Of a stretch of DNA of 64,000 nt, positions 2,578-27,356 are shown piece after piece. The DNA lies in IMG/VR virus record IMGVR_UViG_3300030107_007281, one strand, 5' to 3'. This stretch comes from an uncultured virus (IMG/VR IMGVR_UViG_3300030107_007281). Lineage: Duplodnaviria > Heunggongvirae > Uroviricota > Caudoviricetes. Position numbers and translations under genes: made by a program. How positions within the stretch are numbered: position 1 is the first letter of the stretch; every line of letters starts with the position of its first letter. The notes beneath the pieces were generated by a model, which ran no database searches, was not told the DNA's origin, and saw only the letters and a program-made list of their open reading frames with translations.

Positions 2578-2606
2578 ATTATAACACAAGAAAAATTAGA
2601 TGTCAA
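2578..2606 (-). promoter_or_regulatory. Consensus sigma70 promoter TTGACA-17-TATAAT (extended -10) for RuvC
   Basis: Minus strand TTGACA tctaatttttcttgtgt TATAAT, ending 7 nt before the ATG. Confidence 0.85.
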
Positions 2607-3747
2607 GTTTTAATTTAAAAGTATACTGGTCATCTTCTGTCTTGCGAACAGGGGTGGCCATTTTTGCTATTCCAATGAGATTTCGGTCTTTATCATAAAT
2701 TCCGACTTTCGATATATAAATTGTTTTTTCAAACTTTGGCACCTGATCTGTGAAAGAAGAGCTTACAATATTTTTAATTTCACTTATATCTTCAATATAT
2801 GTATTAGAAGAGGCAGTCGTTGATATTTTTGTTGGTGACACCACAAATGTTGGATTCGTTGAGTGGTTTAATTCACCATATCTAGCATGTGCAAACATAG
2901 TCATTGTTTGTATATTATTTATTCCTTTATATTCTAAGGAAAAACTAGACGACAGGCTGCTTAATTCCGACAAGCTGTTTCCGTCATTTGCGCCGAAGCC
3001 AAAATATATCCATTTTGAGTTGTCAACAACATCATATTGTATCGAATGATTATCTAAACTCCAACTACCAGTTAATGATATAAGACCTTCGTTATATAAT
3101 ATCGAGCCTGCTACGGAACCCGAACCGGTAGATCCCTCTGGTCCAACTTGGACTAAATCGCCATTGAATCTTGAATCTTGCAATTGCCCGACAAGCGTAC
3201 CAGAAACATAATATTTTAAATCAACAGAACCCTTCTTTATCGAAGAACCATAAAAAATTGATGGTACTGCGATCAAGTTTATTGTTTGAGTTGCTTTGTC
3301 TCCGAACGATGAAGAATATTGGTATTGTGGCGACAAATAAGAATAATGATTGAAAACATTCTCTAAGGCTTTTATTCTATTTCTTGTTGTTGTATTATAA
3401 TAAAGTCTAGTAATACTAGCAGACATATTATATGAAGATGTAATCACTGTGCCGTAAGTTTGATAGTTAAAAGAGCCGCTGGCTGTTTTGTTAAACCTCA
3501 TGCGAGGGCCGCTTTTAATTATAAATGGGCGAATTTGATTAGAAACGCCAGAGATCCTATCAATATTATATTCGTATAATGAAATAAATCCCTTTGGCAC
3601 TCCAATAATATTATCGGTATTTGATCCAGAAAAATGCGGATAATTATTTATATAAATCGATCCGCTCTGAATATAAAATTTGAAATCAGGATGTGTTTCT
3701 ACCGTATTTATAAAAAGATCATCTTCTTTAAATTTAAAATAAGCCAT
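2596..3747 (-). CDS. Virion structural protein (tail/baseplate; tail-collar-like C-terminus)
   Basis: C-terminal ISKVGIYDKDRNLIGIAKMATPVRKT...FKLKLD is paralogous to 3794..4903; beta-rich and Ser-rich. Confidence 0.65.
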   Translation of the reverse strand: MAYFKFKEDDLFINTVETHPDFKFYIQSGSIYINNYPHFSGSNTDNIIGVPKGFISLYEYNIDRISGVSNQIRPFIIKSGPRMRFNKTASGSFNYQTYGTVITSSYNMSASITRLYYNTTTRNRIKALENVFNHYSYLSPQYQYSSSFGDKATQTINLIAVPSIFYGSSIKKGSVDLKYYVSGTLVGQLQDSRFNGDLVQVGPEGSTGSGSVAGSILYNEGLISLTGSWSLDNHSIQYDVVDNSKWIYFGFGANDGNSLSELSSLSSSFSLEYKGINNIQTMTMFAHARYGELNHSTNPTFVVSPTKISTTASSNTYIEDISEIKNIVSSSFTDQVPKFEKTIYISKVGIYDKDRNLIGIAKMATPVRKTEDDQYTFKLKLDI

Positions 3748-3763
3748 CTATCAACCTCTCTCT

Positions 3764-3771
3764 TAAATAGT
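3764..3771 (-). promoter_or_regulatory. Putative late promoter core ACTATTTA
   Basis: Intergenic, upstream of the GAGG SD and the ATG at 3747. Confidence 0.5.
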
Positions 3772-3793
3772 TTTATTGAGGTTTATTGATAAA

Positions 3794-4903
3794 TCAGTAA
3801 TCCAATCTAACGCGAATTGTAAATTCATTATCTGGTGTCTTTTTAAGGGGTTCTGATAATTTAGCGACTGCCATCAATTCATCATTAGGGCTGTAAAGCC
3901 CAACTGTTGTGATGTAAGAGACAGGAACATCTGTTACCTCTGATTTAACACGAATCTTGCTACCAGTTAAATATGTTGGGTTCGATGAATAATTAAACTC
4001 AGTATTGTTTACACGACAGAAATAAACTGCTGAGTTAAGTTCAACTGTATTATTGAATTGAATATTATGAATTCTCGTTCTAAGTGCATCGGCGGCACCA
4101 GAAATTTGTGAACCAGTTACAAATGGAAACCCAACAGGACCCTGTAATGGCCCCATGTTACACGACCCGGAACTGTCATTTAATATTCCACCATCGGCTT
4201 CATCTGTAAAGATAGACCCAGTAAGAACAGCAACGCCAGCCTGATAAAATACCAATCCGACCGGTGTTGACTGGCCATCCGGCGCAAGGTGAGGATTCAT
4301 CACATGGGTCGGACCAGCACTCTGAGTTGCGTATAAAATACCATATTCCCCAACTGGTGAATTAACCAAATAGCTATTGGAACCGCTCGCGTCTGTGATC
4401 TTTATTCTATTATTAAAGACCGACCCATCTTCGGCGTAAGCAGATTTGACGCCAAGTTCCAATTGAAAGGATCCTTTTTTAATCTCATCTTTAACAAGAA
4501 GCCTAGAAAAGTTCATAAAATAAGCTTCTTTTATCTTTGTTCCACCGGCCAACAGATCACCGTCAGCGTCAAATTCTAAAACATTACCATCAGCATCATA
4601 TCCCATAAGAACTTGTGCCATTTGGGTATAGATATTGATCTTCTTAGCGTTTTGTGCATTAGCGGCTCCCGATAAACCAGATAAACTTGAATAACCACAT
4701 GTTATATCAAAAACGTGGTTAGCGGAAGAACTTAGATAAGGATAATCATAAGTTGATTGAAACATCCCGTGAGAAAAATTCTTGACGTTTTCAACGCCAT
4801 ATGTACCAGATACAATTGTTCCGGTTAGTGGAATAGCCTCATGTAATAAGGTTCTAGAATTAACTTTATCGCTAGGACTAAGGGGTTTAAAAAATTGCGC
4901 CAT
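3794..4903 (-). CDS. Virion structural protein (tail/baseplate; tail-collar-like C-terminus)
   Basis: FNYSSNPT...YITTVGLYSPNDELMAVAKLSEPLKKT...IRVRLDY; paralog of 2596..3747. Confidence 0.65.
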   Translation of the reverse strand: MAQFFKPLSPSDKVNSRTLLHEAIPLTGTIVSGTYGVENVKNFSHGMFQSTYDYPYLSSSANHVFDITCGYSSLSGLSGAANAQNAKKINIYTQMAQVLMGYDADGNVLEFDADGDLLAGGTKIKEAYFMNFSRLLVKDEIKKGSFQLELGVKSAYAEDGSVFNNRIKITDASGSNSYLVNSPVGEYGILYATQSAGPTHVMNPHLAPDGQSTPVGLVFYQAGVAVLTGSIFTDEADGGILNDSSGSCNMGPLQGPVGFPFVTGSQISGAADALRTRIHNIQFNNTVELNSAVYFCRVNNTEFNYSSNPTYLTGSKIRVKSEVTDVPVSYITTVGLYSPNDELMAVAKLSEPLKKTPDNEFTIRVRLDY

Positions 4904-4917
4904 ATTTTACTCTCTCG

Positions 4918-5883
4918 TTATTGAATTATTTTAACAAATCTTACCGGTATATCAATTGTATACCCTGTTGACATTCCTGTTATTCTAACCATTGTATCTA
5001 TAAAACGACAGGATTGTGAGGCACCGGAACGATTTGTTAAAGTTGTTGTTCCACCAAGTTGTGTAAATAAATAGGTGCTTTGTTGTAGATTTAAACTAGC
5101 TCCTATTTTAAAATTCAAAAAAGTTCCTCTTGGACCTTTTATAATTTGTGTTGTATTTGTTGTTGTATTATTATTTGTCGCGACGATGCCGCCGCCGGTA
5201 CTAATCATGTAAGATGCTATACTGTCATCATCAATAAATTGAGGACCAACCTGTGTGTTGCCAACTGTAATAAGAGTGCCTAATCTGCTATCCATCTGAA
5301 CTATATATGAACTATCAATTAAATCAGCTATCAAATTAGTTGCTGTTGGTGGGACCTCGGTTGTATCAAGACCTTGATCAACTCTAATGCCGTTTTGAGA
5401 ATCAGTCACACTTTGCCCCAACATGATTCCTTGAACTGGGCTTCCGCTTGAATCAAAGCCAATGCCATTTGGTTCGTTTGTAGTCTTACCTTCGGTTGCC
5501 TCATCAACAGCAACTAAAAATGCCCCAGAAGGATCATGTTTTCCACATCTAAGACCAGCTTGTGTTCCGCCGGGGTTTTCTGGATTTATTTTTAATACCG
5601 GAAGATAAAGCAAATTCATGTTATCCATAATAAATAATTTTGTCTTCATTGAAGATGCATTATTAGTAAATGATTCAAGAACTGGTGTTTGCAAAATCTC
5701 TAAATCATAATATGCTGACCCTGACGGATGATTAAAATTGTAGGATGCATAATTAATTTCCTCGTCTCCAAGGGCAAATTTTGAAATTCGGAAACTACCA
5801 TCGCCCTTTGAAAGTTCCTGTCTTCCGTGATCTGTTAAAACGGCATCAAGTATAATGTCGCCACTGTTATCTAAAAAAGCCAT
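4918..5883 (-). CDS. Virion structural protein (LTxxGR N-terminal family)
   Basis: ILDAVLTDHGRQELSKG...ISKFALGDEEINY resembles tail-collar/baseplate N-termini; paralog of 10959..11843; AGGAG SD. Confidence 0.65.
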   Translation of the reverse strand: MAFLDNSGDIILDAVLTDHGRQELSKGDGSFRISKFALGDEEINYASYNFNHPSGSAYYDLEILQTPVLESFTNNASSMKTKLFIMDNMNLLYLPVLKINPENPGGTQAGLRCGKHDPSGAFLVAVDEATEGKTTNEPNGIGFDSSGSPVQGIMLGQSVTDSQNGIRVDQGLDTTEVPPTATNLIADLIDSSYIVQMDSRLGTLITVGNTQVGPQFIDDDSIASYMISTGGGIVATNNNTTTNTTQIIKGPRGTFLNFKIGASLNLQQSTYLFTQLGGTTTLTNRSGASQSCRFIDTMVRITGMSTGYTIDIPVRFVKIIQ

Positions 5884-5917
5884 TAATTAAACTCCTAAAT
5901 GTATTATTTTCTCATAA

Positions 5918-5924
5918 TAAATAG
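5918..5924 (-). promoter_or_regulatory. Putative late promoter core CTATTTA
   Basis: In the 42-nt gap upstream of 5883. Confidence 0.5.
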
Positions 5925-5925
5925 A

Positions 5926-11843: not shown

Positions 11844-11870
11844 TATTTGTTTACCTCATATAATTCATTA

Positions 11871-14800
11871 TCAATCTAAACGATAATCGCCGCCGGGGCC
11901 ATATGCAATATCTGCTAGGTCGGCGGTGGCGACACCACCCCTAACAGACTCTGCCGCTTCTGGTGTTAAAGTTTCCGATACAGCCTCGGCGGCTTCTTCT
12001 ATTTTACCTTGTGGTATAACGATTTCTCTTACAGAACTTTCACTTGTTTTGCCAATCGACACCGTTGCGTCTAATTTTACTAATTCAACCAAAGAAAAAT
12101 AATCATAAGGCCAGTTATATGTGTTTCTTGGAATGTTCGCTGAACCAAGTGTTGCATCTATTGGTTGTGAACCTCCGCCGGGGGCTGGTGCTGATGCTCC
12201 TCCTCCAGTCTCAACGGTTGGATCTCTGGTCCAATCGAAAGCCTCACGATAGTCAGTTGCTGCTCTTTGTTTCACTTTGAAAACCATCCATCTTACTTTT
12301 GGTGGCAAGTTTATGCCGGGTGCGCCATCATCTATCACTACTCTGTTGTCGGTAATACTCACTCTGGAACCTCCGCCAAGCAGTTCTTTTGCTAATAAAT
12401 CATGACTGATGGTAGACTCCGCTTCTTCCATTATTTCTGTTGCTTTCGGATACAATCCTTGCCATATGTCAGCAAGGTCCTGTTGGTCCAAGGTGTGTTT
12501 AAACTCAAAAATATACATCGCGAAAGGATCCATAGTTTCATCGTGCAAAAAGTCCATACTTGGAGGAAAAACGAATTTTTTCATCTTTTGAACCATTGAG
12601 TAGACTGACTGCCCAACGCGATCTTCAAGATTCTGAGAGGCGTGTCGAATATCAAGCCTATCAAGAGCAAAAAACTTCCTAATTCCTTGTGTTTCTATGA
12701 ATGGAACTGCGACGACAGCTTCAAAAATCTCGGTTAAGTCTGCAACTTTGCCCATGCGAGTTGGGGTTTTATCAAATCCAATATGATCAGCCAATGAAAG
12801 AAGTCCTTTCTTTCCAAGAATATTTTCAGCCCAATTGCCATCAATATCAGTTATCTGTAAAAATACTCCTTCATTTTGTGCTTGTGGTAATTTCCCATAT
12901 TGGTGCCACATGCCCCTTGGAACCGATTGAGATCCGTTAGTGGGAAGCGTAATGGACGTTGAAGACGATAGATGATTAAAGTTTAATATTGGACACTCCC
13001 ACTTTGATTGAATTATCCAGCGAGAAGTTTCTTCCGTCTGGGGGCCCGAAAGATCCCTTTGAGATAGTGTCAAAGAAATTGATGCGCTCAATTGTAATGC
13101 ATTTTGATTGTAAACATAGTTATTAAAATATCCCATACCCTTCTCTTTGCCAGAAGTTTCTGCAACATCAAAAATACTATCCACACCACCAGCGATATTT
13201 GTGCCTGTTTGGGAATCAACATGTCTATAATAGGTTATTTTTGATTGTCTTATAATTTCCGGTATTGTAACAGGGCCGTTACTGGTCGGGGTAAAGTGTA
13301 TATCTGCCCAAGCTTCGCCATGATAATATGGAGGTGTAAAAGGATAGTTTTCTCCCAAATCAGATCGATTACCAACATGAGTTGGGGCACCGCCGGGAGT
13401 ATTCATGGAGCCACTAGAATATTGAACTCTATTAGCCATCATAATAGATGGTGGGCCAAAAGCTGTTGGTCGAGAATACATTGTAAAATTTTCTTGTGAA
13501 GATGTAGAGTACTGTGGAACTGGAAAAAGACCTGTCGTGTTAGAGCCCGAATTAGAAAGAATCTGTGGAGTATTAGTGGTCTTGTACATCTTGACTCTCA
13601 TTGCATATTCTTCACCAAGATCAAAACCTAAGATTTCATTTGAAGGTTTTGAAACAAGTCTAGTGTGAGTTTTTTCTTTTAAAAAGAATTTTGTACTCTC
13701 AGCAAAAAAGTTATTTGCCATCAAATAATATAATCTATCACCGTCATTTGGATTAAAAGTCGCTGATGCAGATATATTAGCGAATTCATGAGGCTCCATA
13801 CAATGGAATGTTATCCCTTCAAGCATTTGTGGATTAATCAACGCTTCAAAAGGAATTCTTTTGGGAAAAATAAGGCCGGGTGCAGAATCGCCCTGATATG
13901 TAAAAGAATATTCATCAAACGTATCGCCGTGAAAAGCCCCACTAACAGACAAATAATAATTCTGATTAGTGGCAGATTCATATTCATGCCAAACTCTTAC
14001 TTTTGAGGCAGGAAATTCCCCGACAGCATCGGGATTATATGAGGCAGACGATGATATCTGTAAAATTTGATCTGTGATCGGATAATCAACAGCCATCCCT
14101 GATTTAATCGAATTAAATAAAATACCGGGAGCAAACATGGGAGCCATAATGTTTTGAAAACCAAATTGGGAAGGATTTGTTGCAGACCAAGCATCAGAAG
14201 CACCAGACATAGCCAAGCTGCCGCTATATGATTTATAAAATTGAGATGCCAATTGGACTGTTCTTTGTTGGGGGTAAAAGCCGTCATACGGTAGCAACTT
14301 CTTAATACCTTTACATTTCATTTTTAAATGTATGGGTGCACCCATTTCTTCATTATCCTCGGCAACAAGCTTGAAGTGTTTTAAAAAATCAGTTGTTGAA
14401 TAAACTTCATAAAAATTATCTTCATTTGAGCCTGTTGTGTTCGCAAGGCCACCAGTAATTTCAAATAAATTTTTGTTTTCAGCTATAGTTGAATTGCTCT
14501 CATAAAATTCAACATGATCAGATATTCTAAATTCCGGTATGATTGACATATCTTTACCGAGTTGCCTTGGGCCTTGAATAAAATTACCATATGAATCGTA
14601 AAAAGGACCTTTTCCTGACTGGGAAGCGGCTTCAAACATGGCGTGCCCAGAGGGAATGGAATAATAATCAAGTTCTTCCATCCAACCGGCACCTTCATAA
14701 TTTACACCTTCAATCAACATTCCATTAATATTGGCGGAAGACGATTTGTGACACAAAACGTGAGGTCTATTATAAAGAGGACCCACTCTCATGAGCCTAT

Positions 14801-15953
14801 CTATTGCTGCAAAAGAAGCCGTGTTGGTTATATAATAAGAATAACTTGAGTAAGAATTTTGCAAAACTCCTTGATCACCCCACAATTGTGCTGGGAAGGA
14901 ATTGGCAATATAGCCCCAGTAAAGAAAACCATAGCCAAGGCCGCTTCGAAGTGATGCCGTTGGAAAATCCGTGGCAGCATCCATTGGCCACATACTTTGT
15001 GATATCATAGAGCCAAAATTATTATCGGTCCCATAAAGGTCTTCTGGGAAAGAGTTCGTGCGATCTTCTCTTCTATCTCTCCACGAAAACGAAAACGTAG
15101 TTCTTTGTCTAGTTTGGTTTCTATAAGTTTGTTTTAATCGAGGATATACAGTTTCTTTATATTCTAATGTTTCAAAAACATCAAGAGGGCTGTTGTCGCT
15201 TTGCAATGCGCCATTTAAATACATATTTTTTAAATTGCCATACGCCTCGGGAAACTGATTAACAATGCCCAGTTCTTGAAGCAAGCCCGTGTTATTAAAA
15301 GTAACGATTGAATTGCCAAGTGGAGCCCTTACTTTGACTCTTTCATAAACCGGACTTAGTTCCCCAAGATCATCAACTGTTTCCACAGTGCCATTTACGG
15401 GTGCTTCGCCCACTATATCAGCAGGGTTTGATATTACTCCACCATTTACAGTAATGGAGTGATATTTGGAAACAACAGGGGTTTCCACAAAAACCAATGT
15501 ATCTCCATATCTTGATAGTATTGTGTTTGCTGGATTTGCAGGCGACGTAAATGCTGGGCCCGGACGTTCTGTAACTGTTAAAATATTTAATTTCTTTTGT
15601 TTTCGAGTAAGTGGATTCTGGCTGGTTCTTGTTTGTTTCCACATTGGATAACCGTAAGGGCCGTTTCTATGAAGCATAAGAGCGGGAAAAAATGATGCTG
15701 TCGTCGAGAGATCAAAAGGGAATCTATAATTTTTAAAAAGCTGTAAAACCCTTGGTTTGCCTTCAAGTTCTCCGCTGATATAAACAGATCCTATTTGATT
15801 TTGTGCCAAAGACAGAGGGACATGTAAACTACCAAAATCATAGCTCTCATAGTATGGTGTTTGCCCGATAGATTCTTGATTCTCAGCATCATATCCATTA
15901 GGTTCATATATAAATGTATTTAATCCAACAAAATCTTGATAATATTTAGCCAT
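11871..15953 (-). CDS. Large virion structural protein (1360 aa)
   Basis: Long ORF in the baseplate module, rich in SGS/TGS/SAS/SSS, coupled to the LamG protein gene. Confidence 0.6.
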   Translation of the reverse strand: MAKYYQDFVGLNTFIYEPNGYDAENQESIGQTPYYESYDFGSLHVPLSLAQNQIGSVYISGELEGKPRVLQLFKNYRFPFDLSTTASFFPALMLHRNGPYGYPMWKQTRTSQNPLTRKQKKLNILTVTERPGPAFTSPANPANTILSRYGDTLVFVETPVVSKYHSITVNGGVISNPADIVGEAPVNGTVETVDDLGELSPVYERVKVRAPLGNSIVTFNNTGLLQELGIVNQFPEAYGNLKNMYLNGALQSDNSPLDVFETLEYKETVYPRLKQTYRNQTRQRTTFSFSWRDRREDRTNSFPEDLYGTDNNFGSMISQSMWPMDAATDFPTASLRSGLGYGFLYWGYIANSFPAQLWGDQGVLQNSYSSYSYYITNTASFAAIDRLMRVGPLYNRPHVLCHKSSSANINGMLIEGVNYEGAGWMEELDYYSIPSGHAMFEAASQSGKGPFYDSYGNFIQGPRQLGKDMSIIPEFRISDHVEFYESNSTIAENKNLFEITGGLANTTGSNEDNFYEVYSTTDFLKHFKLVAEDNEEMGAPIHLKMKCKGIKKLLPYDGFYPQQRTVQLASQFYKSYSGSLAMSGASDAWSATNPSQFGFQNIMAPMFAPGILFNSIKSGMAVDYPITDQILQISSSASYNPDAVGEFPASKVRVWHEYESATNQNYYLSVSGAFHGDTFDEYSFTYQGDSAPGLIFPKRIPFEALINPQMLEGITFHCMEPHEFANISASATFNPNDGDRLYYLMANNFFAESTKFFLKEKTHTRLVSKPSNEILGFDLGEEYAMRVKMYKTTNTPQILSNSGSNTTGLFPVPQYSTSSQENFTMYSRPTAFGPPSIMMANRVQYSSGSMNTPGGAPTHVGNRSDLGENYPFTPPYYHGEAWADIHFTPTSNGPVTIPEIIRQSKITYYRHVDSQTGTNIAGGVDSIFDVAETSGKEKGMGYFNNYVYNQNALQLSASISLTLSQRDLSGPQTEETSRWIIQSKWECPILNFNHLSSSTSITLPTNGSQSVPRGMWHQYGKLPQAQNEGVFLQITDIDGNWAENILGKKGLLSLADHIGFDKTPTRMGKVADLTEIFEAVVAVPFIETQGIRKFFALDRLDIRHASQNLEDRVGQSVYSMVQKMKKFVFPPSMDFLHDETMDPFAMYIFEFKHTLDQQDLADIWQGLYPKATEIMEEAESTISHDLLAKELLGGGSRVSITDNRVVIDDGAPGINLPPKVRWMVFKVKQRAATDYREAFDWTRDPTVETGGGASAPAPGGGSQPIDATLGSANIPRNTYNWPYDYFSLVELVKLDATVSIGKTSESSVREIVIPQGKIEEAAEAVSETLTPEAAESVRGGVATADLADIAYGPGGDYRLD

Positions 15954-15954
15954 T

Positions 15955-18900
15955 CTATTCTCCGAAAATTTCTGATGCTGTTGGGAAAGTTATGGCCGGA
16001 ACAAAACCAGATTCCCCATCTATAACTACTGATGAACTCAAAATTCCACTTCTTGGTGCATAGCCATAAATCCTCTGTCTTCCACTCTTAACAGCATAAG
16101 TTCCCTGTGCTGGTGGAACATACCACTCGCGAGTGTCAATCTTAAAAAAACTCTCTTCACTAATTGTAAATTCATTTGAGCCGATGGCGTCTGGGATAGT
16201 GATAGTTCCTTTCAAAATATCACCTGATCCAGAGGGTGGGCTATATCCAGCCCATTGAGCCTCATAGCCAAGTTTAAACCAAGAAACTATATCACTCTGT
16301 GCGCTATGTGTTGAAGGGTCCAATGGCACTCCATAATTATATAGTTCGTCTATTTCAGCTTGGCTTAATAATTTATCCCAAAAGACAAGATCCTGTATCC
16401 CGCCGTGATTATATAAAAGAACTTCTATTTGTGTAATCGTCGGGGTTGTTCCCCCTATTGCACTAAAATCTGTTGATGGATACTCGATTGCATCAATCCA
16501 AAGTCTTGGGACACCACTAGAAAGGTCATTAACATCGAAATGATATACAAGATGTTTCCATTGATTCAAGGTTTCAAATTGGCTTTCTGCGGTGCCGAAA
16601 TTTGCAGTATCATCATACTCGGCATCATTTTTATAATCAACAGTGGGTTTTTTATTTGCAAAGTCAAGTCTATGCATTATAGTGTTGTCAGCTCTTCTAG
16701 TTCTGATTTGTAAAGAATTACCTGTCATTGAAGATGATACATAATACCAAAGAGAAATAGTAAAATCAGAAGTTCCCAAGCCAGAAAAACTTGTATCTTC
16801 AAATTCTGCATACCAACCTGCATCTTTGATCATAGCAAGATAATTGTTACTTTGGTAAAGAGCAGTAGAGGTATCATATCCACCCAATGAAGATGTTATC
16901 CAACTATATTGAAAATCAGATTGTGGTATTGGTGAATTAAGATAAGCATTATCAAAATTATCTTCAAGAATAGGTGACAAGGTTCTGGATCCTGTCATTG
17001 GAATTTTTCTTCCATTTCTCTGTTGTTTGTGAAAATTTGGAACAACAACATAACTCTCAGCAACGGGGCTTGCATGAATTGGGTCGGCACCAAATTGAGC
17101 AGAGTGTCTTCTTAAAAGAGTTTGGAGACCTTCTCTATAGCCCAATTGGCTATCTAATCTCATAGTGTTCGCTTCGCCACTTCCTGACATTCTAACTGTT
17201 AAATTTCTATAATTGATATTATTATAAACAGAATATTCTTTTGAATATGCATCAAGATAACCCAATGTATTAATCTCGACGCCACCGGGAGCAGAAAAGC
17301 GGTTTGTAATAATTGTTCTGTTTTTGTTTCCATTGAGTGAGGAGTCTATATTTTGTATAACAATATCATTTTCCACCACTTCCGTCACACCGCCGACTAA
17401 ATCATTAAAATCAAAAAATGTTTCATATGTTGGTGTTGATCCCGTTATTGTGCCGTTAAATTCGGCTCCATTTTGGGATGCTGTTAACATAACAATATAT
17501 TTACTTTTTGTTAGAAATGGCCCTTGTAGGAATCTAATATTACCTTGAACATTAATAGATGCCGTTACACCTTGCAAGGCTGCACCAGACTGGTCTTCAA
17601 ATGTATCACCATCTGCAAATTGATAACTAACATCAGCATCGGGATCAGACAAACTACTAGTCAGTGGCAAATAACCACGAAGACCAGCGGCGGCGGCGGT
17701 GGGGGTGGCGGTGTAGTTTACAAAAGTATGTCCGTCATAAATTTCGTTAATGTGCGTTTGTGTCAACACAGATGCCCATGTACCAACATTACATATACCC
17801 CCTTTAAACTCAGCGGTGGTTGTTTTTTCATTACTTCGATTGTACAAATAATAAGGCCCAGTCATGGGATTTGCTGAAAATCCGGGGTTCATTGAAACAT
17901 TTCCAGCCCTAGTAGTAGAAACTTCTGTTCCATTTAGATACATTTTGACATCATTGCTTGCTGTACCGGCATAAGATGCTCCCGAATTATGGGTTATTGC
18001 CAAATGAAACCACTTATCCCAATAGTCGGTCATAACTGGCCCTACCCATTCAATATATTTATTATCACTACCGGACAAATAGTTTTTATAAAATTTTAAA
18101 ACTCTTGTTCCTGAGTTATATTTTATTTGTCTTGCGTACTTAAGAGAAGGTGTGGAATCTTGCGAGTAAATAACACCAGTTGATTGATTGGATTGGGAGA
18201 TATACAGCCACCCTGCCCAGCTAAATTCTCGCAGATTAAACCAGTTACTACTATACGACCCCGACATAAAAACACGATGGTTAACGCCACTATTTGGAAA
18301 AGCATGTAAAAAAGGTGCTGGGCCGACTGTTGAAGAAATTTGGGTTGTTGAGGTTACCATAGAAGAGCTTGCTTGTATGTGTGCTTGCAAGTTGTCTATA
18401 AAATCACTATCGTTAGAGCCAGTCAAAACATTTGAAAAACCAGCAGTATTGGACTCAACAATATATCCTATGCTTGCTCCTCCCGCACCAGATGTAATTT
18501 CAAGCTTTGCACCAGTGGAAATATGATCAATACCATATACTGTAAAGGACCCACTCGCTTTTGCAGGGGTAACTCCGGCCTTATTTGGTTGCCTATTGTT
18601 TTCATGAACCCCAAAAACATTTCCTGATACAAACGCAGCCTGCCCTATCAGAGTCATAGGGTGAGTTGTTTCTGGCATTTCCGATCTTATAGAAGATGGC
18701 AAATATAGAGACTGATTTGGGTTTTCTATAAAATATAGATTGTTTTCTTGTTTGCCAAAGCTTTGTACGACTTCATAATTTTCGCTAAAATTCCCACAAG
18801 AAAATAAAGCACCAGAGCCAGTAACTGTTTGAATATTTCTTATATTTACAGGACGCTTGGCTCTTTCTTCTCGATATAAAGTTGCTGCTTTTCTATCTGG

Positions 18901-21900
18901 GTCTGGGTATGGCCCACCATAATCGCAGCCAACAAAACCAAAAGCACCGTCTGAGACTCCATCTGGAATGTATTCTCCAAACATCATCATCCAAGCTTCT
19001 GGTCTAGTTAATTCTCCATCAAGGCCGTTTATTGTAGAATTATCTTGTGAATAAGAATTCAATTCAACATGTCGATGTTGGTGGCCGCCTACCCAATTTT
19101 GAGTAAAAGGGCCCTGCATAGAAATATCATTTGTAAAATAATTGGTATCTGAATGTATATTTGTTATAATGGAGCCACTGTTAAAGCGTTGTTGTACGAT
19201 ACTATTATAACCAGTATTTAAAGAACCAGAATAAATGTTTATTGGAAGCTTTTCCTGTCCAAAGACAAAATTATAAACGTTCGTTTCGTTGTCGGGTCCC
19301 TTGGGTACAACTTGATTGTCTGAAAATCTACCGACAAGCCCCTTTACATTGGATGTTTTCTTTAAATTGGGATCCAATACATCGTCGCATTCTTGTTTTT
19401 TTACAACTCCTTGACCGGCACCTTGGCCTACTAAAAATGTATTTTGCGGAAGACCACCAGAGACCGGACCTGCTCTGTGAACAAAGTTGTGTATAATGTC
19501 CCTATCTTTGTTGGGTGCATAGTTGATACCACCATGAATTGCTTTTTTGAATAACTGTTTTAACTTATAAGGTTTAGATAATGTCCTAAACACATAGGTA
19601 GAGCCCTGATACATTGTACCATTAGTCTTAAATAAATCAGGAATTTTAACAGCATCGTGTTTGGTTATAATTTCTCTTATTGTTTCTCTGTCTGTTATAT
19701 CTGTTCGTTTTTTTCTTTCCTTCTGCCATAAACAATTCTCGTTCTCATTGTTAGCCAACGGAGAGTGTCCATGTTCCCAATCATAGTTCATTTCAGCATG
19801 GCCTCTTATGGCAGCTTCGGGAATATCTTGTTCGATTGTTAAAGGAAACTTATTTTGATATTTGTTTCTTTCAAGTATATGACTATCGACAACATTTAAA
19901 ATACCAGAACTATAACGCGCACTTACAGGAAACAAATCTTCAACAATTCTAGAAACAGAAACATCTATCCATTTAAAATATTCTGAGAATCTATCAAAAT
20001 CCATATCACCAGTTACTCTATCAAAAAATAACCTTCTCAAAATATTTAAATCTTTATATTCAACTCTGTATTTGTCTACTGGCTTTCCTATTAGGTTGCT
20101 AAATTCCGCAACTGATGAAAACATATTTAACATCTCTTCGGAGATAGATTGATACATGCTTTTTTCAACAGAATAAAAATTGTCAGAAACATCTTCATCT
20201 CTAATAAAGTATAATTCCCTCTCTCCTTTGACATAAACATTGTCTGATATCACCGATACTTCTGGTAATTCTTTCTTCTGAGAAAAAATGTTTTTATTCA
20301 ATGCGAAAGATGTATTGTTGCTGCCGAAGTTTGCACCGCGCCCTTTATGCTCTCTTCTGATAATATTATCAATCCAGCCATATACCGTATCGGTTGAGCC
20401 GCTTGAAAAATCTTCAACAATAAAATCACCAGACGCATTAGATGCCGTAACTGTATTAAAGTTCCAGTTCAGCGCGAGCATATCACTACTTGGAATTTCT
20501 GTGTTTAAACCAAAAGGGAAAGTTGTTGACAGCCGGTTGCTTTCATTTGATCCATAATTTGTTGGATCAAGATTGTGTTTTTTAATTATTGTTTTGTCTA
20601 AATAATCCTCATAAAATCTAAATGCTCCAATTTGCATATCAGACCTTTGATCAACGGATCCAGTGAAGTTCGTTACATGAGAGCCAACATAAAATCTTTT
20701 TGGGTTCGCAAGATAGCTTGATCCACTATCATATCCCAAACTAGCTGTTAATAAAAACTCATTATCTACGTCATCATATGCATGGGTGACACCATAAAAC
20801 TCAACAGTATAGTTTGGAGCAGAGGACGTTGCAATATTGCCAACTAATTCATATTTATCTGGTCGAACACTAACTGCTATGTTCCATCTTTGATTGTCAT
20901 ATATGTTCGGTATTATACTAGATGTTAAGTTAATCGTCCCATCTTGATTTTTTAAAACAAATTTAGCATTTTTGGATTCTATTCTATCGCGAACCAAATA
21001 AATTTGTAAATTAGCTATTTCGTTGGCGGCCCATGTATAATTTTCTATTTCACTTGAAACAGCTTCGTGAAATCCAAAAATTGAAGAAGACACAAAAGGA
21101 GTTTGAAAATATCCTTTCTGGAATCCTTCAAGTTTATGCGGCACTATAAAATCAACTTCCGCTGTAAATGCAGAATATCTTTCTAGCTTTTCTGTGGAAG
21201 AACCTGATATGAAAGTGTTGGAGTTGTTGGTGGACGATGTTTGATAAATTGTTGAGGCGAAATAATCTGAATTGTTGAAATTTATATACCTTGTGTTGAG
21301 GTTAGATCTTTTTGTCTTATCATTAAAATAATGAGTACCTCCATCGGTATAAATATTCATTTTTACTAATTCATCATCTACACCAAAACACCGAAGCAGG
21401 TTCCGTATCGATCTCTCTGTTCCTTTTGATTTATATATGTGTTCTAGATTATTATATATGTTTGTATAGATTAGATTTTTTATCTCAGATATTTCTTTAT
21501 CATACATTACATTGTTTATGTCTCTGTCACCAAATTTTTCTAAAATTTTTGAATCAACGAAGAGATTGTTTACAGTGATGCCTTTTTCTATTAATAGTTT
21601 ATTAGCAAAAGGCAGCGGCTTCTGAAAAGACTCTGTATATTTTTTATCTTTTATATTTGGCAACTCTTTTATTTGTGCATGTAAAGTGTCAAAATAATTT
21701 GACATAATTTGAAATAAATATTTTACATTACTGTTGCTGTCATCATCTTCCTCTCTAATCCATTGCGGCAAAGTGTTTAATAGCATGTTGCCATTTTCAT
21801 CATCCCAATTGGAACCAGAAGATTGCATCTCAGACAAAATACTAATAACATCTGGATGTGCGCTATAAATAATTGGATCAGCAGTTTCTTTTGAAACTAA

Positions 21901-23169
21901 CCCAGAATCCGTAAACGCAGATCCCGTTGAGCGAGCACCAGATGAATAACCAATCCAAGAACCATTAGCAATTCTTCCAGAATAATCCAATACAATAGAG
22001 TCCGTAGCGGAGCTACCTACTATTCCTTCATTAAATTTATAATACACACCAAGCTTTACATTCGCATCATCTGTGTTCGTGCCGCCGCCCACTGGGACAT
22101 ACCAATGATTTTTAATTTGTTCAGAAGTTCTTCGGGTTTTCCAGAATCGAAATTCATCAATAGACGCATTTAGCTTGCCAGCAGCGGTTAACGTTGTTCC
22201 GTGAAATACATTACCAGAAGGAGCAGTTTGTAATGCCCCTATATAGCCATTTACTAAGCCCGGAAAATCTCCGTAACCCTGTGTTCCGAGTGTTTGTTCA
22301 TTATCCAAGTCACCATTTTTATACAAACGAGTTGTGATGCCAGAAGACGCAGAAACAAGGCTAAGAGCGTAATGTGACCAGTTTTGAAGAGAAGTGGTAG
22401 TGATATTTGCAGAACCAATAGACTGCTCAAAAATACCCGTAGAACCCGATTGTAGAGTAATTTTAAATGGATTATCACCAAGGACCGAAGAACCAGAGAT
22501 GGCCAATGTGAGGCGGCCATAATCAGCAGAGGAAGATGCATTGCCATTCCAAAGGTCAACAATAATTTCTTTACTGGTTTTTGTATGATCAAAAGATTGT
22601 TTTTTGAGCCAGAATTCAATTGTGACGCCCTCGGAGCCATTGATATCATAAGTGATTGTTCTATTTTTTGTCGTATCATAAATAACAGATTTGTCAAATG
22701 TATCTTTTAAAAGTTTACCTTCCATGCCAGCAGAAGCAGTATGCATCCCGCCGCGAGAATAAATGTATTCATAATCAGAAGAAGCGTTAGGGAGACCATA
22801 ACCTTCTGTTATCGAGGCTGCTGTACCCCAACCACCATAAGAAAAATCAATATACCCTGTTGTTTTTGGATATTTGTTTTTAAACACCCAATTGTCCAAA
22901 TATGATGAAGAGAGTTCAAAAAGTATTTTTTCTTTTTGAGAACCATCGTAAGGATATTCTTCATAAATTCTTTCTATTGTTTGTGTATAATATTCATAAG
23001 CAGAACCATATTTTGCAAAATTTGAAGCTGTTGCAAAATTAACACTTGGTTGAAATGTTTCATTTCTAGCGATCTTTGTCTTTATATAATCAAACGATTC
23101 TACAACAGAGCTTCCAGATTCTGCACTTTGAAAAGTTGATGGCTTGGTAAATAAATCTTTAATACTCAT
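15955..23169 (-). CDS. Giant baseplate/receptor-binding protein with about four LamG (concanavalin A-like) domains
   Basis: Repeated LamG signatures (TIEFWLK..WSHYAL..LYKNG..IDEFRFW; FSWAGWLY..WFHLAIT..MYLNG; FTISLWY..WKHLVY..IQDLVFWDKLLSQAEIDELY) plus a KSKGTERSIRNLLRCFG baseplate-wedge-like motif. Confidence 0.8.
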   Translation of the reverse strand: MSIKDLFTKPSTFQSAESGSSVVESFDYIKTKIARNETFQPSVNFATASNFAKYGSAYEYYTQTIERIYEEYPYDGSQKEKILFELSSSYLDNWVFKNKYPKTTGYIDFSYGGWGTAASITEGYGLPNASSDYEYIYSRGGMHTASAGMEGKLLKDTFDKSVIYDTTKNRTITYDINGSEGVTIEFWLKKQSFDHTKTSKEIIVDLWNGNASSSADYGRLTLAISGSSVLGDNPFKITLQSGSTGIFEQSIGSANITTTSLQNWSHYALSLVSASSGITTRLYKNGDLDNEQTLGTQGYGDFPGLVNGYIGALQTAPSGNVFHGTTLTAAGKLNASIDEFRFWKTRRTSEQIKNHWYVPVGGGTNTDDANVKLGVYYKFNEGIVGSSATDSIVLDYSGRIANGSWIGYSSGARSTGSAFTDSGLVSKETADPIIYSAHPDVISILSEMQSSGSNWDDENGNMLLNTLPQWIREEDDDSNSNVKYLFQIMSNYFDTLHAQIKELPNIKDKKYTESFQKPLPFANKLLIEKGITVNNLFVDSKILEKFGDRDINNVMYDKEISEIKNLIYTNIYNNLEHIYKSKGTERSIRNLLRCFGVDDELVKMNIYTDGGTHYFNDKTKRSNLNTRYINFNNSDYFASTIYQTSSTNNSNTFISGSSTEKLERYSAFTAEVDFIVPHKLEGFQKGYFQTPFVSSSIFGFHEAVSSEIENYTWAANEIANLQIYLVRDRIESKNAKFVLKNQDGTINLTSSIIPNIYDNQRWNIAVSVRPDKYELVGNIATSSAPNYTVEFYGVTHAYDDVDNEFLLTASLGYDSGSSYLANPKRFYVGSHVTNFTGSVDQRSDMQIGAFRFYEDYLDKTIIKKHNLDPTNYGSNESNRLSTTFPFGLNTEIPSSDMLALNWNFNTVTASNASGDFIVEDFSSGSTDTVYGWIDNIIRREHKGRGANFGSNNTSFALNKNIFSQKKELPEVSVISDNVYVKGERELYFIRDEDVSDNFYSVEKSMYQSISEEMLNMFSSVAEFSNLIGKPVDKYRVEYKDLNILRRLFFDRVTGDMDFDRFSEYFKWIDVSVSRIVEDLFPVSARYSSGILNVVDSHILERNKYQNKFPLTIEQDIPEAAIRGHAEMNYDWEHGHSPLANNENENCLWQKERKKRTDITDRETIREIITKHDAVKIPDLFKTNGTMYQGSTYVFRTLSKPYKLKQLFKKAIHGGINYAPNKDRDIIHNFVHRAGPVSGGLPQNTFLVGQGAGQGVVKKQECDDVLDPNLKKTSNVKGLVGRFSDNQVVPKGPDNETNVYNFVFGQEKLPINIYSGSLNTGYNSIVQQRFNSGSIITNIHSDTNYFTNDISMQGPFTQNWVGGHQHRHVELNSYSQDNSTINGLDGELTRPEAWMMMFGEYIPDGVSDGAFGFVGCDYGGPYPDPDRKAATLYREERAKRPVNIRNIQTVTGSGALFSCGNFSENYEVVQSFGKQENNLYFIENPNQSLYLPSSIRSEMPETTHPMTLIGQAAFVSGNVFGVHENNRQPNKAGVTPAKASGSFTVYGIDHISTGAKLEITSGAGGASIGYIVESNTAGFSNVLTGSNDSDFIDNLQAHIQASSSMVTSTTQISSTVGPAPFLHAFPNSGVNHRVFMSGSYSSNWFNLREFSWAGWLYISQSNQSTGVIYSQDSTPSLKYARQIKYNSGTRVLKFYKNYLSGSDNKYIEWVGPVMTDYWDKWFHLAITHNSGASYAGTASNDVKMYLNGTEVSTTRAGNVSMNPGFSANPMTGPYYLYNRSNEKTTTAEFKGGICNVGTWASVLTQTHINEIYDGHTFVNYTATPTAAAAGLRGYLPLTSSLSDPDADVSYQFADGDTFEDQSGAALQGVTASINVQGNIRFLQGPFLTKSKYIVMLTASQNGAEFNGTITGSTPTYETFFDFNDLVGGVTEVVENDIVIQNIDSSLNGNKNRTIITNRFSAPGGVEINTLGYLDAYSKEYSVYNNINYRNLTVRMSGSGEANTMRLDSQLGYREGLQTLLRRHSAQFGADPIHASPVAESYVVVPNFHKQQRNGRKIPMTGSRTLSPILEDNFDNAYLNSPIPQSDFQYSWITSSLGGYDTSTALYQSNNYLAMIKDAGWYAEFEDTSFSGLGTSDFTISLWYYVSSSMTGNSLQIRTRRADNTIMHRLDFANKKPTVDYKNDAEYDDTANFGTAESQFETLNQWKHLVYHFDVNDLSSGVPRLWIDAIEYPSTDFSAIGGTTPTITQIEVLLYNHGGIQDLVFWDKLLSQAEIDELYNYGVPLDPSTHSAQSDIVSWFKLGYEAQWAGYSPPSGSGDILKGTITIPDAIGSNEFTISEESFFKIDTREWYVPPAQGTYAVKSGRQRIYGYAPRSGILSSSVVIDGESGFVPAITFPTASEIFGE

Positions 23170-25141
23170 CTTTGTTTACTCTGAACTTGAATATATGGGG
23201 GTGTTGTCTATAAGAAGACACTGAGTCTTCATAAAAACTATATTGAAATGCATATGTATACCCCGGTTCAAACATAGATAAGTCAAGATCAAAGTAATTA
23301 CCAGATATATCGTAAGATAACATTGAATAATTATCATCATTAGACCCAGTACCATAAGGAACAACTACCTTTTGATCAACCACTCTGGTTATTTGGTAAG
23401 AAGCACTTTCAATAATTAAAGTTTGTGGTGTAGCTTGCGCTTTTGTAAAAATATTGGGGCTCCAATTTTTTTCTCTAACATATATTCTAAATCGTTCAGT
23501 CTCGTTGTTGGAATAAAATTCTTTAAGATCGGGCATTGAAACAACATACTTGCCATTTGGATTTATGTTTGATGCAGCAAGAGTTTGCACCTCTATCGAA
23601 CCCGTATGAAATTGTATTGCGGCGTTTTCGCCCGTTGTAGCGGTGGCGGCGTCAATGATTGTATTCCCACCTTTGAACCAAACATCATATACCGTTTCTA
23701 AATCTGTTGAGCCCGTAAAGGCGATAGAGGCAGAATAAATACCAGTTGAAACCCAACTTCCAGTAGTAACACGAAGGTAGTCTTGCTTAATATGCGGATC
23801 GGCCAAAGACATTAGTAACGCCGAGCCGGATGGGGCCGTATTATCTGACGAGCCAGAAAAAAGACTAACATGTATTTCACCCGTTCCAACACTAGGTATA
23901 TTAGTCAGCTTACCTCTAACATAATTGTATAAGTAAATTGAATTTAAATTATCACCGGATGGAGCAAGCGAAGAGCTAAGAAAAAAGTTACCTCTATGGT
24001 CTTTCAATGTTGAATCCCAACGAGCCTCTATTGATGGTCTTTTAAAGAAAAATTCACTGTCTTTTCCAAAAAATTTCTTTGTATAATAAGATATAACAGC
24101 GTCACCTGCTGCCTGCACAGAACTTGAACCCTCATAAGAAGAAGATAATTTGACTAAAACACCATTATTATTTTTTGATCCAAGTACATTGTTCGCACTA
24201 TCAAGCCACTGTTCAACAAGAGTGGTAATATCAACAGACAAATCTTCCGTTCCAATCGGAAAAGTTTGTTCAAAAGAAGAACTCAGATCCGTATAATAGT
24301 CGCCTCCATTTGATACCCATTTACCATCACCACTAGAAAATATCGCAGTTACATTATCACCTTCGCCACTGTCGGCAAGATTTTGTGCTCCACCACCAGA
24401 TGCCGTTTGTAAGGCTCTAAGTGATGAGTTGTCTGTAATTGTGACTGTCTTACCAACTACTGATCCATTATTTATAAGTTCAGTAAACTCAGCAGTCGTT
24501 AAATTAACTGCACTAGAACCATTGTTGTCGCCGTTGTTTGGAGTTATTGTGGCAACAATCTCAGATGGGGTTCCGGTGAATGCGGCTAGAATTGTGTTTG
24601 TTGGGTTGGCGGCTGCTGCGGCAACTTTTAGTTCAAACGTATTATCGTTTCTATATCTTCCATTTGCACTAGCTGTTAGTGTTATATCATTTGTTAAATC
24701 GATTGTTGCGGTTGCTTTTGCTAGCGGACCAACAGCATTAATCCAATTTGAGCCAATTTTATCATATGTCAAATCAGTATAATTATCTAAATCGAGGCCG
24801 TTTCCTTCTTGCCAAGATCCACTAATAGCATTAACAGTTATCTTAAAATCTTTTGGCAATGTTGAAGAATGACGCGCATTATATAGATTTAAAAAGAATT
24901 TCATACTACCAGATGCAGGGATAGTTCCCGCTGTGCGATCTGTTTCGATATCTGAAATTGGAAATTGTACTAAAATTCTTGATAATTCTACTGATGAAGA
25001 AGTTTGTTGGCCATAGATTGAAAAGGTTTCCAATATATCAGCAGCACCAGCATTAGAGCCAGTTCCTCTTGTGGATAATGCTTCATCAAAAGCATTGGTT
25101 ATAGAATTATCTGCATTTGCAAAATATTTTTTAATAGCCAT
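23159..25141 (-). CDS. Virion structural protein (baseplate-associated, beta-rich)
   Basis: 660 aa, directly after the gp6-like gene; SRILVQF and RPSIEARWD motifs; internal Ala/Thr-rich insert. Confidence 0.65.
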   Translation of the reverse strand: MAIKKYFANADNSITNAFDEALSTRGTGSNAGAADILETFSIYGQQTSSSVELSRILVQFPISDIETDRTAGTIPASGSMKFFLNLYNARHSSTLPKDFKITVNAISGSWQEGNGLDLDNYTDLTYDKIGSNWINAVGPLAKATATIDLTNDITLTASANGRYRNDNTFELKVAAAAANPTNTILAAFTGTPSEIVATITPNNGDNNGSSAVNLTTAEFTELINNGSVVGKTVTITDNSSLRALQTASGGGAQNLADSGEGDNVTAIFSSGDGKWVSNGGDYYTDLSSSFEQTFPIGTEDLSVDITTLVEQWLDSANNVLGSKNNNGVLVKLSSSYEGSSSVQAAGDAVISYYTKKFFGKDSEFFFKRPSIEARWDSTLKDHRGNFFLSSSLAPSGDNLNSIYLYNYVRGKLTNIPSVGTGEIHVSLFSGSSDNTAPSGSALLMSLADPHIKQDYLRVTTGSWVSTGIYSASIAFTGSTDLETVYDVWFKGGNTIIDAATATTGENAAIQFHTGSIEVQTLAASNINPNGKYVVSMPDLKEFYSNNETERFRIYVREKNWSPNIFTKAQATPQTLIIESASYQITRVVDQKVVVPYGTGSNDDNYSMLSYDISGNYFDLDLSMFEPGYTYAFQYSFYEDSVSSYRQHPHIFKFRVNKDEY

Positions 25142-26937: not shown

Positions 26938-26963
26938 AAAAGGAAAACTCCGACAAATCACAA

Positions 26964-26978: not shown

Positions 26979-27356
26979 TTAAATATTTGTTACTTCTATT
27001 TCAATGAAATCCACTATTTCGACAAAATCTATTTCATATTTTAATTTAAGGTGGATACTTTGTTCACCACTTGGCCTTACAAGTAGCTCCAAAATATCTA
27101 TATAAGGTGCATAGATCTTTATCTGTTCAATCACGCGGTTTCGTACTAATTCCAACAACTCAATTGTAATGTTTTCAAACAATGCTTGTTTTATTCCAAC
27201 ACCAAAATTCGGTATCATTATACGCTCGCCCGGATTGGTTAAAATAATATTTTTTATATTAAATTTTACACTATCTTTTATATCTGACAATTCGTAGCCA
27301 GAATTCTTACTTGTAAAGTCAAGTGGAAATGTTAATCCCGGTGTTTCTTTTGGCAT
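26979..27356 (-). CDS. Baseplate wedge/sheath initiator (T4 gp25/GPW family)
   Basis: NIKNIILTNPGERIMIPNFGVG is the hallmark TxxGERxxxPxFG motif; AAGGAG SD. Confidence 0.9.
   Translation of the reverse strand: MPKETPGLTFPLDFTSKNSGYELSDIKDSVKFNIKNIILTNPGERIMIPNFGVGIKQALFENITIELLELVRNRVIEQIKIYAPYIDILELLVRPSGEQSIHLKLKYEIDFVEIVDFIEIEVTNI

Follow-up and report, generated by a model that had tools for sequence, protein, structure and literature searches.

Glycosylation of the proteins that make up phage particles is known from very few systems. Among viruses of eukaryotes, the chloroviruses encode their own cytoplasmic glycosylation enzymes, and their capsid carries N-linked glycans at atypical sites. 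In bacteria, cytoplasmic O-glycosylation (of serine-rich-repeat adhesins by GtfA/GtfB, of autotransporters, which are heptosylated, by TibC/AAH, and of flagellin) relies on soluble transferases that modify Ser or Thr residues of proteins that later face outwards. Bacteroidota possess a general O-glycosylation system with the sequon D-[ST]-[AILVMT], which acts beyond the cytoplasmic membrane on lipid-linked glycans. Here we consider a stretch of 64,000 nucleotides (henceforth the window) from an uncultured virus of the Caudoviricetes, IMG/VR record IMGVR_UViG_3300030107_007281, where the tripeptide [ST][GAS]S is concentrated in five proteins of a tail module that adjoins an island of sugar genes. 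On the sequence evidence we lean, if only slightly, towards reading this tripeptide as an enzyme-recognised acceptor site for O-glycosylation of the exposed parts of the virion, tied to the sugar system of the phage.

In mycobacteriophages, glycans are found at the C-termini of capsid and tail-tube subunits, according to passages of PMC12619734 that cite Freeman et al. 2023; further passages of the same source deal with large aquatic phages of another lineage, whose core glycosyltransferases form four groups. The likeness with the window is that of a tailed phage with soluble glycosyltransferases of its own (here one of family GT2 and two of family GT4, none with membrane segments), proposed to coat its own virion. 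The candidate sites differ in that they form an ordered tripeptide dispersed in the distal tail, the sheath and the neck, rather than lying at the capsid and tail-tube C-termini named in those passages; nor do the passages of PMC12619734 in question describe a sequon with proteome-wide enrichment and avoidance. The glycan chemistry of the present clade, furthermore, is putative. Full-text literature searches found no description of this motif, and no acceptor code for any phage.

All genes of the window lie on the minus strand, and the content in guanine and cytosine is 30-40%. Sites were counted without overlap, with expectations taken from 2000 whole-protein shuffles per protein, and 53 open reading frames (ORFs) of the window were scored in this way. 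The tail proteins that matter here, with lengths in amino acids (aa) and numbers of sites observed versus expected, are the following:

2596..3747, minus strand: 383-aa distal tail protein, motif-rich (11 vs 2.36, z 6.2), with an immunoglobulin (Ig)-like beta-sandwich core and without Pfam or PHROG match
3794..4903, minus strand: 369-aa distal tail protein, motif-rich (6 vs 1.51, z 3.9), with about 100 C-terminal residues in common with the 383-aa protein
11871..15953, minus strand: 1360-aa tail protein, motif-rich (13 vs 4.10, z 4.8)
15955..23169, minus strand: 2404-aa LamG-containing protein of the fibre or baseplate periphery, motif-rich (40 vs 9.96, z 10.0; Laminin_G_3 E 3.7e-19)
23159..25141, minus strand: 660-aa protein encoded directly after the gp6-like protein, motif-rich (18 vs 4.20, z 7.7)
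25141..26961, minus strand: gp6/Baseplate-J-like wedge protein, of the inner set, without any site (0 vs 2.25; PHROG baseplate wedge E 4.9e-21)
26979..27356, minus strand: gp25-like baseplate wedge protein, inner (GPW_gp25 E 1.6e-12)
27405..34790, minus strand: 2461-aa inner tail or baseplate protein encoded upstream of gp25, motif-poor (1 vs 3.36), without Pfam or PHROG match

Taken together, the five motif-rich proteins hold 88 sites where 22 are expected, about a four-fold excess, and none of the remaining 48 ORFs has four sites or more. The hand counts of the original prediction (about 11, about 6, at least 10, dozens and about 18, in the order of the list) are borne out by the figures above, as is the near-absence it had claimed for the gp6-like protein, the 2461-aa protein and a 543-aa GT2 glycosyltransferase (1 site vs 0.65 expected). 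The enrichment survives composition-matched shuffling, of whole proteins as well as block by block: with blocks of 60, 30, 15 and 10 residues z stays between 3.9 and 9.4, which rules out local composition as its cause down to 10 residues. All six Ser codons are used at the sites, in roughly background proportions, and the 88 sites span 75 distinct 9-mers; the signal therefore resides in the protein and not in the DNA, and codon bias or another DNA-level signal is ruled out as well. Internal repeats were found in none of the five proteins, and the only similar pair is made by the 383-aa and 369-aa proteins (27-29% identity over 104-112 aa), all other pairs being without similarity. Repeats and shared domains are thereby dismissed as a cause, and the motif must be carried by at least four unrelated protein families.

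The motif is directional and ordered, and it needs Ser at position 3. Of the tripeptides that occur more than once, SGS (27 vs 4.4), TAS (15 vs 2.5) and TGS (17 vs 3.4) ranked highest in an unbiased scan covering every tripeptide, the [ST][GA]S subset amounting to 64 sites vs 13.1. With Thr at position 3 the five proteins show no enrichment ([ST][GAS]T, 20 vs 16.6), and patterns of the [ST][ND]S type are at or below expectation. Sites were first described as usually following a hydrophobic residue: the bias is real (53% vs 32% in the background, p 3.5e-5; 47 occurrences of the extended form hydrophobic-[ST][GAS]S vs 7.8), but it concerns only 47 of the 88. Their dispersal, also claimed, holds, as they are spread along the proteins with no extended common context. 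Known sequons are not enriched in the five proteins, be it N-x-[ST] (62 vs 63.2) or the D[ST][AILVMT] of Bacteroidota (12 vs 17.9). The Bacteroidota system shares with the one proposed here a three-residue code for O-glycosylation and the phylum of one known host of the clade (Flavobacterium); it differs in the code itself and in its place of action, the island of the window being fully soluble.

Beyond the window, homologs of the 660-aa protein are encoded by 25 viral contigs (37-71% identity). On these contigs the five proteins have orthologs that are for the most part enriched, the signal being clearest for the 660-aa and 2404-aa proteins (z 5.9-10.8 for the latter); the gp6-like and ~2300-aa proteins are not enriched there. 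Homologs of the 383-aa protein (n=116) carry 9.1 sites on average (range 6-12) vs 2.0 expected, and orthologs of the 369-aa protein at loci L026 and L027 carry 8 vs 2.0-2.4; those of the 1360-aa protein are enriched in some relatives (L006, 15 vs 3.1) and weakly so in others (L012, 8 vs 5.2). The 2461-aa protein has orthologs of 1800-2570 aa throughout the clade. Alignment of the gp6-like protein added 80 loci, at 31-61% identity; 14 were excluded for a truncated match or for less than 1.2 kb of downstream sequence, and 66 were scored. At 62 of these 66 loci the region downstream of gp6 is enriched (z of at least 3.0), with a sum of 2333 sites vs 659.6 expected. The picture extends to two isolates that are only remotely related (gp6 identity about 31%), Flavobacterium phage immuto and Microcystis phage Mel-JY01, with 8 enriched ORFs out of 116 and 13 out of 157 respectively, their remaining ORFs standing at ratios of 1.07 and 0.98. 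Unrelated phages have no enriched ORF (T4, 0/128; phiKZ, 0/189) or a single one (SPO1, one weak among 88; Syn9, one among 110; P-SSM2, one among 169), and genome totals are near expectation in T4 (71 vs 73), phiKZ (93 vs 94) and SPO1 (55 vs 53). This rules out a generic property of tail fibres, the enrichment being absent from five unrelated phages: it is lineage-specific and clade-wide. The lone enriched ORFs of the two cyanophages are at 18953-20743 in P-SSM2 (17 vs 6.8) and at 150885-152471 in Syn9 (7 vs 1.9), in genomes whose totals slightly exceed the expected ones (224 vs 189.5 and 147 vs 124.5). For the 383-aa protein, public metagenomes contain at least 3,691 homologs, and for the two GT4 enzymes of the island, GT4-a and GT4-b, at least 7877 and 7432 respectively, many of them from Tara samples.

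Which proteins are marked can be seen on G017, a marine-clade contig of 157.7 kb rated 87% complete, where 8 of 114 ORFs are enriched and the remainder stands at a ratio of 0.99. Enriched are the orthologs of the 660-, 2404-, 369- and 383-aa proteins, the tail sheath (12 vs 4.2), a neck- or adaptor-like protein (6 vs 1.3) and two small uncharacterised proteins; portal, terminase, gp6-like protein, giant inner protein and enzymes show no enrichment. The major capsid protein is marginal or not clearly enriched (4 vs 1.7 in G017, 3 vs 1.8 in immuto). In the sheath of myoviruses the C-terminal part forms the inner layer, as in gp18 of T4, and the sites lie outside this conserved core without exception, 12 out of 12 in G017 (residues 144-629 of 988) and 10 out of 10 in immuto (residues 62-393 of 709). 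Sheath, neck and distal tail thus carry the motif, portal, terminase and gp6 do not, and the marked set appears to match the outward-facing parts of the virion. The related contigs of 145-158 kb, rated 80-87% complete, imply genomes of about 180 kb, which leaves the label "jumbo", initially given to these phages, unsupported.

The inner proteins, taken as those encoded upstream of and including gp6, avoid the motif. Where lineages bear it, 210 unique inner proteins totalling 141,740 aa hold 190 sites vs 303.9 expected, a ratio of 0.63, when eight control tripeptide classes in the same set range from 0.87 to 1.28; the count is below expectation at 54 of 62 loci. In lineages without the motif, 44 inner orthologs hold 64 sites vs 66.4, a ratio of 0.96. 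The inner sequences are related, so that p-values overstate their independence, and it is the contrast between orthologs that controls for fold. Concentrated in exposed virion proteins and shunned, specifically, by the inner set, the motif behaves as would a code recognised by an enzyme, rather than as an accident of composition or structure, in line with the original prediction. The Thr-ended form [ST][GAS]T shows a mild excess in the inner proteins, in motif-bearing (1.28) and motif-less lineages (1.26) alike, over 76 related loci.

Enrichment is missing from four of the 66 loci, L188 (4 vs 4.2), L215 (15 vs 12.7), L180 (10 vs 5.6) and L221 (weakly, 7 vs 3.6). A gp6 tree built with FastTree nests them inside enriched clades, L180 as sister to the window's own subclade, L188 and L215 beside the enriched L210, and L221 beside L237. 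Among their relatives, L259-L262 and L265-L271 are not enriched (ratios 0.8-1.7), and L264, 41% identical to the L188 protein, is. True orthologs of both the 660-aa protein (32-36% identity) and the 2404-aa protein (34-45%) are present at L215, L188 and L180, and in them near-invariant motif columns are replaced and their flanks kept: IIE[SAS]YQI becomes IVE[KAY]YKI or VVE[AAY]YEV, PYG[TGS] becomes KYG[IGT] or EYG[IGG], and FYA[SSS]L becomes FYA[KRK]T, while Ser content goes from 11.8% in the enriched family to 5.9-8.5% in motif-less orthologs. Since the flanks stay when the motif columns turn bulky or charged, the folds do not need the motif; judged from these alignments, it is dispensable for them, and its positions tolerate bulky and charged side chains.

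These replacements bear directly on an explanation without any enzyme, that of an inherited, lineage-specific structural or physicochemical device, such as strand caps or turns aiding folding, solubility or flexibility in sea water. Each family does have eight or nine columns where half of the homologs or more show the motif (nine in the 660-aa family, among 20 homologs, with swaps that stay within the motif class), and an excess of lineage-private sites, as fast gain would leave, is not seen; the hydrophobic residue at -1 and the frequent placement at strand ends would fit a motif of beta-strand edges, and the GT4 pair outlasts the motif. We nevertheless regard such a device as unlikely. The motif is present in at least four unrelated families, the same kinds of proteins in five unrelated phages do without it, and orthologs put Lys, Tyr, Ile or Glu in its place with the flanks kept; the device would also give no reason for a motif-specific inner depletion that vanishes in motif-less lineages, nor for a loss from several unrelated proteins along with the sugar island.

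Structure prediction had been expected to place the sites in surface beta-turns. The model of the 660-aa protein, at a predicted local distance difference test (pLDDT) score of 53, is too poor to use, and that of the 383-aa protein reaches 68.8, with a core above 85. For the latter, Foldseek against the Protein Data Bank gave no match at E<=1e-3, and VIA-align over 48,161 chains gave a best Z of 4.9, to generic Ig-like sandwiches, which does not amount to a fold assignment. In these two models sites occur in strands and loops alike, so that a placement in turns is not shown. Coil fractions reveal no clear preference for loops either: motif residues stand at 0.65 against 0.43 for all confident residues in one model, and at 0.42 against 0.47 in the other.

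Read along transcription, the window contains a PD-(D/E)XK nuclease, two GT4 enzymes, a GT2 enzyme, about 18 kb of nucleotide-sugar genes, a tail lysin with a VanY domain, the 2461-aa protein, the gp25-like and gp6/J-like wedge proteins, nine more tail genes down to position 2596, and then replication genes. It is a myovirus tail module adjoining a sugar island, and the features of the sugar side are these:

61634..62419, minus strand: PD-(D/E)XK nuclease, synteny anchor directly upstream of the GT4 pair
60037..61302, minus strand: GT4-a, conserved core glycosyltransferase of the clade (PF00534 48.3 bits)
58796..60040, minus strand: GT4-b, conserved core glycosyltransferase of the clade (PF00534 23.3 bits, weak)
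57172..58803, minus strand: GT2-family glycosyltransferase, 543 aa (Glycos_transf_2 E 2.1e-13)
38848..57175, minus strand: soluble nucleotide-sugar biosynthesis island (NCBIfam matches all below equivalog cut-offs)
38848..57175, in the island: separate HldE-like heptose-7-phosphate kinase and heptose-1-phosphate adenylyltransferase, and a phosphatase-like protein
38848..57175, in the island: GMD-like dehydratase, three GDP-fucose-synthase-like reductases and RmlC-like epimerase
38848..57175, in the island: RfbH/PseC-like pyridoxal phosphate enzyme, thiamine pyrophosphate-dependent E1 alpha/beta, radical S-adenosylmethionine enzyme and PhyH dioxygenase

Glycosyltransferases had been announced for the whole of 38848..61302; they are present at 57172-61302, but the remainder, 38848-57175, encodes nucleotide-sugar enzymes. 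The proteins resembling rfaE domains I and II reach 115.9 and 105.6 bits, where the equivalog cut-offs stand at 345 and 181.5, and no sedoheptulose-7-phosphate isomerase was recognised among the island enzymes. The unusually rich tailoring set hints at a branched or deoxy sugar of the heptose type, and a tailored heptose-type sugar would be a reasonable guess, no more. A member of the DJ-1/PfpI family (deglycases and proteases) is encoded mid-island, at 53454-53996 (E 1.3e-32). Island proteins have at most one weakly hydrophobic segment each; they are thus soluble, and no membrane enzyme is among them. An island with no flippase, polymerase or ligase-like membrane protein is poorly suited to making glycans of the host envelope, and its lack of membrane proteins would suit a cytoplasmic target.

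The signature of family GT4 is an E-x7-E in the C-terminal domain. It is invariant in both enzymes (E288/E296 in 34 GT4-a sequences, E281/E289 in 34 GT4-b sequences), and it is kept in immuto, in Mel-JY01 and in the motif-less lineages. GT4-a matches Glycos_transf_1 (PF00534) above the Pfam cut-off of 26.4 bits, and GT4-b stays below it, several of its close homologs carrying PF00534. The closest solved relative of both is the chlorovirus enzyme B736L (3OY2), a weak likeness (E 1e-7 for GT4-a, 6e-3 for GT4-b) that spans only about 130 residues of the C-terminal domain, from a virus that has a eukaryotic host. In GtfA/GtfB, one catalytic GT4 enzyme works with a non-catalytic GT-B partner on a substrate made of long serine-rich dipeptide repeats. 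The window, too, has two adjacent GT4-type genes, but both keep the E-x7-E glutamates, unlike an active/inactive pair, and its 88 sites are dispersed, with no long Ser-rich repeats. TibC/AAH heptosyltransferases carry a GT9-like domain. The window may resemble that system by its HldE-like, putatively heptose-activating enzymes (below equivalog cut-offs, as said); no GT9/BAHT-type domain is found among the Pfam matches of the 32 window proteins scanned, ten of which have no Pfam match at all, and no NCBIfam match names GtfA/GtfB, TibC/AAH or flagellin glycosylation.

Of the whole island, only the GT4 pair is common to the window, immuto and Mel-JY01, and the order nuclease, GT4-a, GT4-b is conserved in the two isolates and on the L215 contig. 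A search of 50,697 phage records turned up GT4-b in immuto (four records) and Mel-JY01 alone. GT4-a is also found in LR756508, where there is hardly any enrichment (2 of 327 ORFs), and in Rhodothermus phage RM378, partly enriched (101 vs 56 overall), where the next gene is weakly GT4-b-like. The GT2 enzyme of the window has no homolog in immuto, Mel-JY01 or LR756508. Several arrangements of these genes are met: GT4-b is fused to a C-terminal GT2 domain in G010, G018, G019, G028 and G030 (P0181, P0214, P0231; frames of 643-686 aa), and in the window the two are separate genes with an 8-base overlap. In Mel-JY01 the GT4-a homolog consists of two adjacent ORFs (record 83441-84932; L176 5442-6933) that match residues 3-150 and 151-316; the gene may be split or frameshifted, though the phage is motif-enriched. 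Upstream of the nuclease, a small protein with weak matches to M90/anthrax-lethal-factor-like metallopeptidases is encoded both in the window (62403-63074) and on the motif-less L215 contig (L257 4387-5082), and is therefore part of the conserved neighbourhood of the pair.

At least two nested lineages have lost the enrichment and the sugar-biosynthesis island jointly. From GT4-b to gp6 the distance, measured by hand from coordinates on every contig covering both landmarks, is 16.7-33.8 kb in 15 enriched genomes (window included) vs 10.0-13.2 kb in 5 motif-less genomes, which represent two independent lineages; contigs G007, G012, G014, G015, G016, G025-G027, G029, G031, G032, G034 and G038 do not include the region upstream of gp6 and are uninformative as to the presence of glycosyltransferases. 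On the L215 contig, nuclease, GT4-a and GT4-b are followed directly by a tail amidase and baseplate genes, the island being absent. The island of G028, a contig from the L180 lineage, is a shortened one made up of GT4-a, a GT4-b::GT2 fusion, a sulfotransferase-like gene (L272 13331-13978, Sulfotransfer_2 E 1.9e-6) and small ORFs. Genes for sugar epimerases/dehydratases dependent on nicotinamide adenine dinucleotide are found on none of the five motif-less contigs (one of them 145 kb long, rated 80% complete) vs all six long enriched ones, and GT2 domains on one of the five vs four of the six. The original prediction, which had motif density co-vary with the glycosyltransferase cluster, is right in that motif and sugar island disappear together in at least two lineages, but the GT4 pair persists without the motif; its further proposal, that the GT4s are the enzymes reading the motif, cannot simply be retained, motif-less lineages keeping both with their E-x7-E. 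That the GT4 pair alone explains the distribution, as a covariation that looked perfect had suggested, is likewise ruled out by motif-less contigs with intact-looking pairs: the pair appears necessary but not sufficient for the motif.

Recognition of the motif, as enrichment and avoidance show it, does not tell its chemistry. It could be the acceptor for another modification of Ser (phosphorylation, acylation, sulfation or a phospho-linked group) by an enzyme of the phage or of the host, the island then serving the DNA or the host envelope. In the passages of PMC12014285 devoted to other marine phages, structural proteins are reported as phosphorylated and acetylated, with no mention of glycosylation, and this precedent, the sulfotransferase-like gene in the reduced island of G028 and the survival of glycosyltransferase genes where the motif is lost would all agree with such a modification. 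We think it improbable, given that searches with Pfam, PHROGs and NCBIfam found no kinase or acyltransferase in the window, that within the marine clade the motif vanishes with the sugar-biosynthesis genes, and that the island lacks every membrane component which host-envelope glycans need. The loss could also follow a change of host, if the motif were an unmodified functional feature of the surface, for example serine-rich patches binding polysaccharides of the host or of the environment, discarded with the island. The marked proteins indeed face outwards and contact the host, and motif loss accompanies strongly diverged tail proteins (32-45% identity), as a switch of host would lead one to expect. 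Loose binding, however, hardly accounts for a strict, ordered tripeptide that takes Ser and not Thr at position 3, inner avoidance would stay unexplained, and sheath and neck are enriched though they do not contact receptors, so that we give this explanation very little credence.

A number of observations weigh against an acceptor site for O-glycosylation, and they temper our preference for it. The joint loss amounts to two, perhaps three, independent lineages, in a gp6 tree without support values and in phages whose tail modules can be exchanged. Motif-less lineages keep both GT4-a and GT4-b, with E-x7-E and with 118-128 of 149 and 71-95 of 111 invariant residues, and G028 keeps a GT2 domain despite having lost the motif, so that none of the three types of glycosyltransferase is sufficient for it. 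Mel-JY01 is enriched, yet neither annotation nor similarity to the island of the window reveals a sugar-biosynthesis gene in its own island; the motif is therefore not strictly tied to such genes across the deep clade, and the proposal that they are strictly required is weakened. The excess lies mostly in positionally conserved or clade-level columns, and sites private to one lineage arise about as often as in the controls, a picture equally expected from a structural role. Avoidance is limited to the inner structural proteins, with no genome-wide depletion outside the enriched set (1.07 in immuto, 0.98 in Mel-JY01, 0.99 in G017). In the two models (pLDDT 53 and 69) sites are not confined to loops, being found at strand ends, within strands and in loops. 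Finally, the case consists of sequence statistics throughout, and a glycan, a mass shift or a staining has been seen on no protein of the clade.

Ordered enrichment, avoidance in inner proteins, dispensability for the folds and joint loss with the island together make an acceptor code read by an enzyme the best explanation. We infer the modification of the motif, the nature of the sugar, the residue that accepts it and the enzyme that reads the code as follows. [ST]-[GAS]-S, mostly after a hydrophobic residue, would be recognised in the cytoplasm of the infected cell by a soluble transferase encoded by the phage, and the invariant third Ser would most likely be the residue modified, with an O-linked sugar built by the island at 38.8-61.3 kb. 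Outward-facing parts would be tagged in this way, in the window the proteins distal to gp6, in relatives also the outer domains of the sheath and the neck protein, and inner parts would have been purged of the motif, as a modified inner protein would impair assembly. For the first step the conserved GT4 pair stands as the best candidate; supplying and tailoring the sugar, here probably heptose-derived, would fall to the variable island. Stated in full, this would be the first sequon of a bacterial virus, hydrophobic-[ST]-[GAS]-S, present on every outward part of the tail and purged inside, served by soluble phage enzymes in the cytoplasm and by lineage-specific, fast-evolving sugars (in this phage derived from heptose), so that sheath, neck and fibres of every phage lineage would wear a distinct coat of glycans, a proposal that we hold tentatively and place a little short of an even chance.

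The clade in question is very large and abundant, comprising marine and freshwater myoviruses. If its tails do wear a sugar coat, this would bear on host recognition, on resistance to proteases and to host defences, and on the stickiness of particles in sea water. It would bear as well on what is done by the many "polysaccharide" genes that marine virome studies class as auxiliary metabolic genes. Since immuto and Mel-JY01 share the signature and are in culture, the idea lends itself to direct testing. More generally, the pairing of enrichment with avoidance offers a general route to modification codes from sequence alone.

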